A stretch of DNA of 64,000 bases from Candidatus Omnitrophota bacterium (lineage in GTDB: Bacteria; Omnitrophota; Gorgyraeia; Gygaellales; Profunditerraquicolaceae). The notes beneath the pieces are model-generated. The model saw nothing but the letters and a program-made list of their open reading frames with translations, was not told where the DNA came from and ran no database searches. Positions 26,373-31,688 of the stretch are shown piece after piece. Position 1 is the stretch's first letter; every line of letters starts with the position of its first letter. Location of the stretch: contig JALOCB010000003.1 in assembly GCA_023227985.1 (NCBI GenBank), positions 5,260-69,259 on the forward strand, written 5' to 3'. Position numbers and translations under genes: made by a program.

Positions 26373-27684
26373 GCAGGAAGATAGTAACGTAAAAGGCATC
26401 AGCCACAAGCAGCAGGCTCAAAACCGCCGTTTATATCTGGCGGTGGTCGCAGGCCTGTTGCTTGTGGTTTTATTTTTCGGGTATATACTGATCGCCGTAA
26501 ATAAGCCCCGGCCCAGGGTGTACATAAAAAAATACCGTAACGGCAGTTACCGGATGTTCGCCTCCGGAAAGCCTTATGTGGTCAAAGGCGTTTGTTATAA
26601 CCCTATACCTGTCGGGTTGAGCCATGATTATGACTGGTGGTCTGATCCCTATAAGCCCTGGATGGTTGACGGCAAGCTGATGAAAGAAATGGGAATAAAT
26701 ACCATCCGGATCTACCAGACAGGGGAAAAACCCGAAAATGTCAAGCAGGTCATCCGCGAACTTTACGATAACTTCGGGATCCGCACGATCGTGGGGCATT
26801 GGCTGGGATTCTGGGAATATCCCTGTCCTTTGTACGGGGATGAGGAATTCCAGTCCCGGATCGGTAAAGAGGTTCTGGATATGGTCAATGAGTATAAAGA
26901 TGAACCCGGGGTGCTCTGCTGGATCCTGGGCAATGAGAACAATTATTCCTGCCTGGGCAGCGTAAATCCCTGGTCCAGCGACGATATAGACAAAGAGCCG
27001 GATCTTCAGAAACGCAGAGTTTTGCGCAACCGTATTTATTATTCTTTTGTTAATGATCTGGCTAAAAAGATACACGCGATCGATCCCGAACATCCGGTAG
27101 GCCTGGGTAACGGCGAATTGATCGGATTGGATTCGGCCCAGGAGTACGCATCCGAAGTGGATATGGTCGCCTGCATCATTTATCGGGGCAAGACGTTCGG
27201 CAATCTTTTTAAATCGTTGAAAGCGACTTTTGACAAGCCTATACTTTTGTCCGAGTTCGGCGCGGATGCCTATGACGCGTACTTGAAGAAAGAGGACCAG
27301 AATATGCAGGCTTTCTTCCTGGAATCGCTGTGGCGGCAGATCTATGAGAACCTTGCCGATAATAAGAAAGGCGCTGGGAATTGCCTGGGCGGGGTGATGT
27401 TCGAGTGGACCGATGAGTGGTGGAAACATAATTCGGTGGATCCGGAAAGCTGGAAGGTCCATGATACCGAATCCAACTGGTCCAACGGGAGTTATTATTT
27501 TGATATAAAGGCCCCCAAGAACATGAATATGAACGAGGAATGGTTCGGGATAATCGCTTTATCCGCCGACCAGAAGGATTTCGGCCTGGATATGCGTGTT
27601 CCCCGCAAGGCCTATTACGTGATCAGGGATTTCTGGAATAATCCCAAGGTTAAAGCCAGGAAGCAGAGGGGGAAATCAAAATGA
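26332..27684 (+). CDS. Membrane-anchored clan GH-A type glycoside hydrolase paralog (450 aa); true start probably downstream of 26372
   Basis: TM anchor LAVVAGLLLVVLFFGYILIAV. Motifs ILGNENNYS and LLSEFGADAY. Alignable with the 771-aa hydrolase (GINTIRIY, KDEPGVL). The listed start overlaps the previous gene by 41 nt. Confidence 0.55.
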   Translation: MELFSIWMRSSTNKQEDSNVKGISHKQQAQNRRLYLAVVAGLLLVVLFFGYILIAVNKPRPRVYIKKYRNGSYRMFASGKPYVVKGVCYNPIPVGLSHDYDWWSDPYKPWMVDGKLMKEMGINTIRIYQTGEKPENVKQVIRELYDNFGIRTIVGHWLGFWEYPCPLYGDEEFQSRIGKEVLDMVNEYKDEPGVLCWILGNENNYSCLGSVNPWSSDDIDKEPDLQKRRVLRNRIYYSFVNDLAKKIHAIDPEHPVGLGNGELIGLDSAQEYASEVDMVACIIYRGKTFGNLFKSLKATFDKPILLSEFGADAYDAYLKKEDQNMQAFFLESLWRQIYENLADNKKGAGNCLGGVMFEWTDEWWKHNSVDPESWKVHDTESNWSNGSYYFDIKAPKNMNMNEEWFGIIALSADQKDFGLDMRVPRKAYYVIRDFWNNPKVKARKQRGKSK

Positions 27685-29303
27685 AGATAAAAAACGGAAC
27701 GCAAGCGGTAATGTCGTTTTTTGCGGTATTGATTTCTATGTGTTACGCGGTTTCTGCCTTTTCCCAGCCGCAGCCGGCTTGCTGCGGGGATCTGCTTAAG
27801 CGGGCAAATTCTTCCGTGAACAGCCGGGAGCTTTTTGTTGATTTTCAGTCCTGCCAGGCCGAATACCTTAAGGATGGACGTTACAGCAACTTCGTGGATT
27901 TCTTAAAGGGCCTGGGACAGAAGAAAAAGGGCCTGGAGCCGCTCATTAATTATTTTACCGGCTTGACCCGTTATCTGCAGATGAGATTCCTGGAAGAAAA
28001 ACAGGCCTGGGATGAATATTTCAGCCAGGGCAATAATTACCGCGACGAGATCTCCGCGTCCCTGGATAAAGCGGTTAAATCCACTGACGCGAATGAGGCG
28101 TTGAATATTCACGCCCGGCTGATATTGTGGCGGTTCCATTATGACCAGCAGGATGTGTTCGCGGAACAATCCCTGACGGATCTGTTTAACTCCGCGATCG
28201 AATACGCAAAGACCGGGCAGGACCTGTCTGTGGTGAAAAAGACCGCGGACACCCTGATTTCTTACGGGGAGAGGTCAAAAGCGGCCCAGTTATACAAGCT
28301 TTATATTAACACGGTGATCGCCGCCGGGACAAAAGCCGATGATATAAAAGCTTTGGCTTTAGGGTTTTTAAATGAGGGCAATATTGAATTGGCCCAAACC
28401 GCCTTTGACAGCTATATAAAGAAGGTGATCGAGACCTTCACCGCTGAAGAAAAAGCCGCGGCTTTGAGAGAGGTGGCGCTTTTATTCGCCTGGAAGGAGC
28501 CGGAGGCTAAGGACGGTTTATACGCGGAGAAGATATTCAAAGCGATGGAAGAGGGGTGCGGTAAAGACGCATTTGATGAGGAGCTTTTGTATCTAAGGGC
28601 GTATAACCTGGAGCGGGTCAAGGAATACTCGTCCGCCAAGGATGTTTATATAGAACTTTTGACCCGTTTCCCGCAGACCCAATACGCGCAAACCTGCGCT
28701 TATAAGATCGGGTTGATCGCGTTATACATCGATAGGGATGAAAGCACAGCCAGGCAGTATTTTGAAAAGGGCGTTCAGGGCGATCCTTCCGGATCATCGG
28801 GGCTTTCCAGCTTATATCAATTGGGGGTATTGACCCAGTGGGAAGATGAGCTTACCCGGGCCCAGGGTTATTATGATAAACTGATCGAAAACGCGCAAGG
28901 CAGCGGTTTTTCGGATATCGTTGCCTTGACCAAAGACAGGCAAGCCGAGATCAACAGCGAAAAACCTTTGGATAACAACATCAAGATCATGCTGGACCTG
29001 GCTTTGAAGCCGGATAATTCCAATCTGGATATGTCTAAGGTGCAGACTAAAGTTTCTCCGTCAGTGTCCGGGATAGACGGGGAATTTACCATAACCTCCA
29101 GCGCGACCTCGCCGCAAAGCGGATGTATGCAGGTGGCTTTGGACTATATATGGGCGGGTGATCTGGGAAAAATAACCCCTTCCGCCGACTCGTCCGCGTT
29201 AACCGTTGCTTATTCCGATCCCGGGACAAAGATAGTCGGTCTTGTAGTTATGTGCCCCTATGGGGTATTGGACAGGAGCATTGATATAATCGACGTTGAA
29301 TAA
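27681..29303 (+). CDS. Hypothetical secreted helical-repeat (TPR-like) protein
   Basis: Signal peptide MSFFAVLISMCYAVSAFSQP. Helix-rich repetitive composition. Last gene of the sugar-utilisation cluster. Confidence 0.45.
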   Translation: MKIKNGTQAVMSFFAVLISMCYAVSAFSQPQPACCGDLLKRANSSVNSRELFVDFQSCQAEYLKDGRYSNFVDFLKGLGQKKKGLEPLINYFTGLTRYLQMRFLEEKQAWDEYFSQGNNYRDEISASLDKAVKSTDANEALNIHARLILWRFHYDQQDVFAEQSLTDLFNSAIEYAKTGQDLSVVKKTADTLISYGERSKAAQLYKLYINTVIAAGTKADDIKALALGFLNEGNIELAQTAFDSYIKKVIETFTAEEKAAALREVALLFAWKEPEAKDGLYAEKIFKAMEEGCGKDAFDEELLYLRAYNLERVKEYSSAKDVYIELLTRFPQTQYAQTCAYKIGLIALYIDRDESTARQYFEKGVQGDPSGSSGLSSLYQLGVLTQWEDELTRAQGYYDKLIENAQGSGFSDIVALTKDRQAEINSEKPLDNNIKIMLDLALKPDNSNLDMSKVQTKVSPSVSGIDGEFTITSSATSPQSGCMQVALDYIWAGDLGKITPSADSSALTVAYSDPGTKIVGLVVMCPYGVLDRSIDIIDVE

Positions 29304-29322: not shown

Positions 29323-29362
29323 AAACAAAAAACCCGCTCAAAATTCCGAGCGGGTTTTTTGT
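29323..29362. terminator. Bidirectional rho-independent terminator
   Basis: aaaacaaaaaacccgctcaaaattccgagcgggttttttgtt: an A-tract, a 9-bp GC-rich stem, and a T-tract. It serves the + strand TPR gene and the - strand tRNA-fMet. Confidence 0.8.
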
Positions 29363-29408
29363 TGGAAATTGCGGGGGCCAGATTTGAACTGACGGCCTTC
29401 AGGTTATG

Positions 29409-30033
29409 CTTGCTACTACAGCTTTAGCTGCTCCGCTATCAAGCGGATTCGTAGTCTGGACTATATCTTGACCAACTATCGTTGGCCCCTGCCGTTTAGT
29501 CTCTACACTTTTCTCCGTTGCCGGAGACTTAGCTCGGTATTACCTTGACTTGCGTCGAGGGTTTCACCGAATTTGACAGGATATCCTTCAACCGTTACCG
29601 GTTGAGGAGCCCTTCGGACAATAAACTCCATCGTTGCCTGTACAGTGCGGACATCGGTTTGCGCTGTCGTTTGCCGCTTTCGACTAAACTGATGGTGCTG
29701 CCGAATTTGGTAAAGACAGAGCAGGGGACGATGTAGAACACATTCAGGGGTTCGATTACAGCACCGCAAAATCGAAATCATCCGCGTCATATCTCGCCCG
29801 CAACATCCTTCGTCTGTTCGTCTTGGTCCGTCTGACATCGACACAATACATGTCGTTTTTCTGGTCGAACCAAGCGCTTTTGACTTGAATGCGCAGAAGT
29901 TTACCATCCAGGTCGATCGCCAGATCATAAGGGAGGCGATCCCCGAACGGTTTGAGCACCCTGAACCCTTGTTTCAGGAGTTCAGTGATGACGGCAGATT
30001 CTGCGATGTCAGATTTGAGTTTTTTATCCATTG
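29409..30033 (-). ncRNA. Group I intron (IC3-like) inserted between U33 and C34 of the tRNA-fMet anticodon loop
   Basis: Exon ends with U at -1 and the intron ends with G (omega G). The core elements GUCAAAUUCGGUGAAACC, CCGAGCUAAG, GUGUAGAGACUAAACGGCAGGGG (R/P7) and AAGAUAUAGUCCAGAC (S/P7') closely match the Azoarcus tRNA-Ile and cyanobacterial tRNA IC3 introns. A 91-codon ORF occupies the 5' part of the intron. Confidence 0.8.
29756..30031 (-). CDS. Intron-encoded ORF (91 aa), putative PD-(D/E)xK-like homing endonuclease
   Basis: The AUG is at intron nucleotides 3-5 (CA-AUGGAUAAAAAA), in frame with the upstream exon. Sequence MDKKLKSDIAESAVITELLKQGFRVLKPFGDRLPYDLAIDLDGKLLRIQVKSA..., with E...PYD...IDLDGK / IQVK resembling a restriction-endonuclease-fold core. 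The analogous cyanobacterial tRNA-fMet intron encodes the PD-(D/E)xK enzyme I-Ssp6803I. The six-frame ORF 29756..30061 is this ORF spuriously extended into the tRNA exon. Confidence 0.45.
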   Translation of the reverse strand: MDKKLKSDIAESAVITELLKQGFRVLKPFGDRLPYDLAIDLDGKLLRIQVKSAWFDQKNDMYCVDVRRTKTNRRRMLRARYDADDFDFAVL

Positions 30034-30126
30034 AGCCTGACGAGCTACCGGACTGCTCCACCCCGCGAATCTATTATGAAAGAACAGGTATATTTTACTC
30101 TTATTTTAAAGAGTTCAAAGCCTTAT

Positions 30127-31688
<1,562 letters not shown>

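Follow-up and report, generated by a model that had tools for sequence, protein, structure and literature searches.

A group I intron in an Omnitrophota initiator tRNA gene with an apparently recently frameshifted homing endonuclease gene of the I-Ssp6803I type

An initiator tRNA-Met (tRNA-fMet) gene, located on the minus strand of the 64,000-nucleotide stretch of DNA analysed here (the window, to which all positions refer), is interrupted after U33 by a group I intron of 625 nt that contains the 91-codon open reading frame of the original prediction (Table 1). Since a CA dinucleotide is present at both intron borders, three junctions are formally possible; only GGCU/CA...AAG/CAUAA (slashes mark splice sites) gives a U at −1 along with a G as the final intron base. 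This junction places the ATG at intron nucleotides 3-5, in agreement with the predicted ORF start at intron nucleotide 3. The same 5' exon also precedes the homologous endonuclease gene in about 60 related loci, whose introns, 616-683 nt in length, are inserted at an identical site; across these homologues the initial intron bases vary (CA, CG or TG) while the start of the 3' exon is constant (CATAAC). The split gene was missed both by ARAGORN in a scan of the window and by the Rfam tRNA model. Exons joined by hand in silico (30034 to 29408) were accepted by ARAGORN as a tRNA-Met(CAT), and the spliced tRNA displays the CAU anticodon, the C1xA72 mismatch and the A11:U24 (purine11:pyrimidine24) pair of an initiator. 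The anticodon stem, UCAGG paired with CCUGA, contains A29-U41, G30-C40 and G31-C39, that is, two consecutive G-C pairs instead of three, so that its assignment as an initiator depends on the CAU anticodon, C1xA72 and A11:U24; in related loci the corresponding segment of the stem reads AGG or GGG. No second tRNA-fMet gene was found in the 64,000-nt window.

Table 1. Features of the intron-containing tRNA-fMet locus. Positions are those of the window; slashes mark splice sites and carets the deletion point.
Feature	Position	Strand	Basis or remarks
tRNA-fMet 5' exon (positions 1-33, ends ...CAGGCU)	30067..30034	minus	letters CGCGGGGTGGAGCAGTCCGGTAGCTCGTCAGGCT; C1xA72, A11:U24
Group I intron (625 nt) interrupting the anticodon loop between U33 and C34	30033..29409	minus	RF00028 core, terminal bases, homologous introns
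P1 5' strand GGCU/C; extension UGGAU	30037..30033; 30030..30026	minus	extension comprises UG of the start codon and codon 2
91-codon ORF with premature TAA (29758..29756); homing endonuclease codons 1-91	30031..29756	minus	2OST, PF11645
1-nt deletion (T missing between A29757 and A29756)	29757..29756	minus	CTG TA^A TCG vs CTG TAT ATT; alignments with L002 and L083
Out-of-frame remainder: codons 93-145 and original TAA (29597..29595), −1 frame	29756..29595	minus	translation VIEPLNVFYIVPCSVFTKFGSTISLVESGKRQRKPMSALYRQRWSLLSEGLLNR, then stop
Ribozyme core, Rfam-aligned	29633..29437	minus	RF00028, model 1-253; 39 nt at its start shared with the 3' end of the endonuclease gene
P1 extension 3' strand GUCCG; internal guide GGGCU	29619..29615; 29612..29608	minus	GUCCG lies in codons 138-140
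tRNA-fMet 3' exon (CAUAACC... to discriminator A73)	29408..29369	minus	letters CATAACCTGAAGGCCGTCAGTTCAAATCTGGCCCCCGCAA; no CCA encoded
Putative intrinsic terminator, hairpin CCCGCTC-GGAATTTT-GAGCGGG-TTTTTT	29354..29327	minus	directly 3' of the tRNA; flanked by an A-run and a T-run

The putative terminator, a G+C-rich hairpin of 7 bp, lies between the minus-strand tRNA-fMet gene and a convergent plus-strand ORF (27681..29303) and looks like a bidirectional element. It gives weak matches to the Thr and Leu leaders in Rfam, through the terminator part of these leader models, and was not listed in a simple promoter and terminator scan, which also listed no promoter for the tRNA. The convergent ORF encodes 540 aa and is without a Pfam match in the public gene tables of an identical locus (L084). 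In a syntenic relative (L083), different and shorter genes are found at this position and synteny stops directly past the tRNA.

The ribozyme core is found in the 3' third of the intron, where Rfam family RF00028 matches over its full model (61.6 bits, E 8.5e-15, against a gathering score of 50). The ORF does not fill the 5' third of the intron, as had been stated, since its 276 nt represent 44% of the 625 nt; together with the out-of-frame remainder described below, the gene (30031..29595) takes up 70%. Upstream of the ATG, the frame stays open across the tRNA exon as far as a GTG at 30061, and the ORF is indeed in frame with the exon as originally noted. However, in about 60 of 80 related loci the gene begins 2-24 nt after the GGCU/ of the 5' exon, with spacers of 2, 3, 4, 5, 6, 8, 9 or 24 nt between splice site and ATG. 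This variation makes the shared frame incidental, and a functional link between the ORF frame and the exon frame was rejected.

Comparison of the 91-aa product with proteins of known structure and with Pfam identified it as related to I-Ssp6803I, the homing endonuclease of the tRNA-fMet intron of Synechocystis PCC 6803, as originally proposed. Residues 3-90 align to residues 4-91 of the 151 residues of PDB entry 2OST (I-Ssp6803I) with an E of 6.6e-28, and Pfam PF11645 (PDDEXK_5) is matched with an E of 1.7e-30 and 106 bits (cut-off 26.1 bits), albeit over profile positions 1-90 of 138 only. These two matches indicate that the ORF did not arise by chance. Y35-D36 and Q49-V50-K51 align to the YD and QVK of 2OST, with the catalytic-residue assignments for 2OST resting on alignments made in this analysis. 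D8, E11, D36, Q49 and K51, which are invariant in 24-34 homologues, are all present in the 91-aa ORF, as is a segment RRTKTNRR, and the group I intron and tRNA-fMet anticodon-loop setting of the PF11645 family is found at the window locus as well. Neither the 91-aa fragment nor an intact relative matched an NCBIfam model. Judged from these alignments, the ORF product is a PD-(D/E)XK homing endonuclease homologue of I-Ssp6803I through direct homology, and not through likeness of fold only.

The remainder of the enzyme, 53 codons, was found directly downstream in the −1 frame. Fusion of the two frames yields a 145-aa protein that aligns without gaps to residues 4-140 of 2OST (E 6.2e-46, 75/137 identical, or 55%), and with one T added between 29757 and 29756 the gene again has an ORF of 145 codons, whose product is identical at 143 of 145 positions to the homologue P0123 encoded at L083. 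The missing base was placed by DNA alignment with two relatives: the alignment with a metagenome contig (L002, 86% identical) puts it after CTG TA, and that with L083, which is syntenic (eno-ftsB-tRNA-fMet) and 89% identical, puts it at the identical spot. Intact relatives read CTG TTT ATC and CTG TAT ATT where the window reads CTG TAA TCG, and the syntenic L083 and L087 both carry TAT ATT at the deletion point; the surrounding sequence is CTGTAATCG in the window and CTGTATATCG in the intact counterpart. A complete domain of this family comprises about 140-150 residues in one reading frame, which the window copy lacks. On its sequence, this copy is a pseudogene, or a degenerate member of the I-Ssp6803I family, and not an intact one.

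A search with the repaired protein returned 1173 homologues with an aligned core of 139-145 aa. The best 120 of the 1173 are 66-86% identical to the query and 139-204 aa long; source-named entries among these 120 come mostly from Omnitrophota metagenome-assembled genomes (MAGs), and several have been named “group I intron-associated PD-(D/E)XK endonuclease” by NCBI. Before the truncation point, D8, E11, D36, Q49, K51 and R67-R74 are invariant; after it, F99, Y100, P103, F107, S112, E118, K121-R124, P126 and W135 are. The conservation anticipated in homologous tRNA-fMet introns was confirmed, as about 60 of the 80 related loci share this gene context. Besides the window allele, only one of the related loci (L079) has its gene split between two frames.

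The fold was modelled with AlphaFold2 on an intact homologue (P0002, 78% identical; 34 aligned sequences) as a stand-in for the window fragment. One of the five models was confident (pLDDT 72.7, pTM 0.70; the others about 40) and contains the elements H3-20, E24-26, E37-41, E44-56, E61-64, E88-93, E98-103, H104-107, E114-116, H127-131 and H135-139. A Foldseek search of the PDB with this model, the comparison with I-Ssp6803I and Hjc that had been suggested at the outset, returned chains of 2OST at the top (2OST_A, E 6e-16, TM 0.85), followed by SPARDA DREN domains and Hjc resolvases. These structural neighbours agree with the literature on I-Ssp6803I (PMC3384342; bioRxiv 10.1101/2025.04.08.647717), in which the DREN domains are described as forming a tetramer like that of I-Ssp6803I (bioRxiv 10.1101/2025.04.08.647717). 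The stop after residue 91 of the window product cuts the strand 88-93 of the P0002 model, and all later elements are lost. Deprived of the rest of the core sheet and of F99, Y100, P103, E118, KRQRKP and W135, the 91-aa product is most likely inactive, as far as the model of its homologue can be carried over.

The deletion recurs in other assemblies: L084 (ENA ERZ27247363) carries the allele, with 1 mismatch to the window in 6276 nt, as do L085 (GCA_028711865.1), with 4 mismatches in 3665 nt, and L001/L086 (GCA_041653715.1 = JGI 3300037067), with 3 mismatches in 2957 nt, and all of these mismatches fall outside the intron. These copies were obtained through protein-identity look-ups; an exact-pattern scan of metagenome contigs for the deletion allele found none, and a relaxed pattern found the intact allele only, in a 1.87-Mb contig. 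A gene that is in truth intact, its deletion introduced only by sequencing or assembly, would be in keeping with a single-base indel, with the origin of every copy in metagenome assemblies and with the absence of any decay downstream. We regard this as very unlikely, however, because the deletion recurs in four non-identical sequences (the window, L084, L085 and L001/L086) from NCBI, ENA and JGI, its site (GCTGTA^ATCG) is not within a homopolymer run, and the related intact allele assembles normally. From its occurrence in non-identical assemblies and its position outside a homopolymer, we take the deletion to be a real allele of a near-clonal population, the assemblies of which may come from related samples. 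The deletion also appears to be recent, as no decay is visible downstream of it. Between the window and L083, codons 1-91 differ by 10 synonymous and 0 non-synonymous changes and codons 92-145 by 5 synonymous and 2 non-synonymous changes, at both of which the window retains the family consensus (A129 and R134), for a dN/dS of about 0.03 overall.

The original prediction had regarded the 91-residue product as a functional PD-(D/E)XK homing endonuclease of unusually compact size. Indeed, the first 91 residues contain all motif residues alignable to I-Ssp6803I (D8, D36, Q49 and K51) as well as the basic segment RRTKTNRR, and the deletion allele persists in several assemblies. This is nevertheless highly improbable. 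The stop falls inside a core beta-strand of the modelled fold and removes 14 invariant positions, including E118 and KRQRKP, from an enzyme whose family acts as a tetramer (PMC3384342), and among the best 120 of the 1173 homologues none ends near residue 91. Moreover, the downstream codons, intact in the −1 frame, point to a very recent loss rather than to an adapted short form; the small size noted earlier is thus the result of a 1-nt deletion. Even less credible is continued production of the complete enzyme, whether through programmed −1 ribosomal frameshifting or through two separately translated halves that then associate. The C-terminal frame is open and undamaged, and a GTG at 29741 opens a 48-codon ORF in it, but no Shine-Dalgarno-like sequence precedes this GTG, a break at the deletion would cut the core beta-strand, and the intact relatives need no recoding. 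Programmed frameshifting was rejected for want of a slippery heptamer of the form X-XXY-YYZ at G-GUG-CUG-UAA. The reading that accommodates these data, and which we consider very probably correct, is that of a tRNA-fMet intron that is self-splicing and contains an I-Ssp6803I-type homing endonuclease gene frameshifted in recent times, with ribozyme and tRNA intact and the endonuclease dead or dying.

The position of the gene within the intron was defined through relatives whose introns lack it. ORF-less relatives (12 loci) begin, for example, GGCT/CAATTTTGGGCTCC, which forms a direct hairpin GGCUC-loop-GGGCU, and the Rfam match in these loci starts about 10 nt before the splice site, so that the first hairpin of the model corresponds to P1. 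In the window, about 420 nt separate the GGGCU from the splice site, which places the endonuclease gene in the P1 loop; this loop is closed by an extra helix of UGGAU with GUCCG. A U(−1)-G wobble at the 5' splice site is found in 28 of 28 distinct rows of aligned introns, and the window intron terminates in ...AAG. In this alignment of 51 introns (28 distinct rows), which is anchored on the protein alignment and on GGGC and so is biased towards the proposed structure, 95% of the cells in P1 and its extension pair, compared with 55-58% after a one-column shift of the partner. Covariation is seen between the third bases of codon 2 (GAC/GAU) and codon 138 (G/A), with C-G in 13 rows, U-A in 9, U-G in 3 and others in 3; this is the one covarying pair, it joins two synonymous third positions, and the window variant is the U-G wobble. 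Sequestration of the start codon in P1 could, as a hypothesis, make translation of the endonuclease dependent on how the precursor is folded.

The first hairpin that Rfam draws in the window is GGAG...CUCC (29629..29606), and the stretch 29619..29608, with GUCCG and GGGCU, falls in the 3' strand of the first (P1) hairpin of its model. A reading of GGAG...CUCC as P2 was rejected, as the same model positions align to the true P1, exon bases included, in the ORF-less relatives; the hairpin is more plausibly a local alternative to the long-range P1. The gene shares its last 39 nt with the Rfam-aligned ribozyme, and the C-terminal LLSxGLL thus reflects constraints on the RNA as well as on the protein. 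At L055, the free-standing copy has a different C-terminal end, …WELIDGDI. The original stop codon of the endonuclease, UAA, lies in the loop of a hairpin AACCGG-UAA-CGGUU (29590-29603, minus strand) just before P3.

These features suggest a place for the locus in the homing cycle of invasion, fixation, endonuclease decay and loss (Goddard and Burt 1999, as cited in PMC1995217). I-Ssp6803I is a tetramer that recognises a 23-bp pseudo-palindromic target, and by analogy the 145-residue enzyme of intact relatives would cut intron-less tRNA-fMet genes across the sequence of the anticodon stem-loop, the putative target being GCTCGTCAGGCTCATAACCTGAAGGCC; the intron would then spread as the cut is repaired from the copy that bears it. 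In the window, the loss of one T creates the TAA after codon 91 and leaves the last 53 codons out of frame, with the 91-residue product retaining the D...QVK motif. With both the ribozyme and the tRNA exons undamaged, splicing should continue and supply a functional initiator tRNA. The locus would thus stand at the first step of endonuclease decay within the cycle, providing a dated snapshot of this step while the ribozyme is intact. The initiator tRNA gene in which the intron resides may be the sole one, in which case splicing has to go on regardless of the fate of the endonuclease. As in the cycle, an intact ribozyme with a freshly inactivated endonuclease is present here and intact copies or ORF-less introns are present in sister lineages; the population-level dynamics are inferred in our case. 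Little is at stake in the finding itself, as the enzyme family and its genomic niche are known, the product has already been named in NCBI and its smallness comes from the frameshift.

The intron and its enzyme were also considered beyond the window. A homologue scan with one genome per species, from which 80 loci were fetched, covers Omnitrophota and MAGs labelled Planctomycetia, Deltaproteobacteria, Bacteroidota, Patescibacteria, Margulisiibacteriota and Melainabacteria. About 12 of these loci (L039, L041, L055, L058, L060, L063, L064, L065, L067, L077, L080 and L082) have an ORF-less tRNA-fMet intron of 202-325 nt along with a free-standing I-Ssp6803I-like gene, which has the orientation of the tRNA and follows it at a distance of about 60-1200 nt. 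Six of the seven ORF-less introns scanned pass the Rfam threshold (52-70 bits), L064 falling below it, and the free-standing gene was confirmed as an intact ORF only in L055 (intron 1684-1904, ORF 1980-2429). A free-standing endonuclease gene beside its intron could represent a stage before or after embedding in the P1 loop.

For the endonuclease gene, the window and L083 show a synonymous divergence of 0.17; the values for enolase and ftsB are 0.51 and 0.83. Identity between the two amounts to 97% for the ribozyme core and 86-88% for the flanking genes (30127-31682). The low divergence of the intron may mean either that it moved between lineages after their split or that its synonymous sites are constrained. 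Free-standing genes (about 12 loci), genes embedded in the P1 loop (about 60 loci) and a freshly frameshifted gene (the window) have now been seen, and we put forward, tentatively, that the tRNA-fMet intron with its I-Ssp6803I-type endonuclease may be widespread and currently mobile in Omnitrophota and several other uncultured phyla, with every stage of its life cycle represented in public MAGs, and not a cyanobacterial peculiarity. If so, the synonymous divergence of the intron, about 3-5x lower than that of its flanks, would reflect recent homing between lineages. A 2012 review still called the I-Ssp6803I family generally cyanobacterial (PMC3384342), and no description of these tRNA-fMet introns in Omnitrophota was found in the literature searched. 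The loci thus indicate a large, unstudied population of tRNA-fMet introns outside the cyanobacteria, although this breadth is a modest addition, as it is already reflected in database annotation.

Among known systems, the closest counterpart is I-Ssp6803I itself. With the frameshift repaired, the window protein is 55% identical to it over 137 residues (E 6e-46) and shares the Y-D...Q-V-K motif, the tRNA-fMet host gene and the group I intron type. The introns are similar in size (655 nt with 150 codons in Synechocystis, PMC1995217; 625 nt with 145 codons in the window), and the modelled structure of a close homologue can be superposed on 2OST with a TM of 0.85. In contrast to the Synechocystis intron, the window intron resides in an uncultured bacterium of the Omnitrophota type, not in a cyanobacterium, and its endonuclease gene is frameshifted after codon 91. 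Hjc resolvases and SPARDA DREN domains, the next-best structural matches, share the PD-(D/E)XK core fold, but at 12-20% identity and a query-normalised TM of 0.34-0.48; they act on other substrates in other biological settings and are not intron-encoded. The records nearest to the window are those of Omnitrophota already named by NCBI, which include the window's own products; relatives number >1,100.

The window's own 101-aa and 91-aa products are in NCBI (MCK9594258.1, MFA5374086.1 and MDD5079619.1) under the name “group I intron-associated PD-(D/E)XK endonuclease”, with the frameshift unflagged. The 101-aa MCK9594258.1 starts at the GTG inside the tRNA 5' exon and carries a spurious N-terminal MEQSGSSSGS (30032-30061, minus strand), a translation of the D-arm and anticodon arm. 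As annotation, then, the 91- and 101-aa records are pseudogene fragments, the longer one beginning in a tRNA exon. The tRNA side of annotation is affected as well: split tRNA genes unseen by ARAGORN and the Rfam tRNA model make such genomes appear to lack tRNA-fMet. Overlong public gene calls are also found for the homologues P0001, P0057 and P0120, and are of two types: those that read through the tRNA exon and acquire the N-terminal extension VEQSGSSSGS, and those that continue past the stop codon into the ribozyme core, gaining RKRLKDSLSNSV (…RKRLKDSLSNSVKP).
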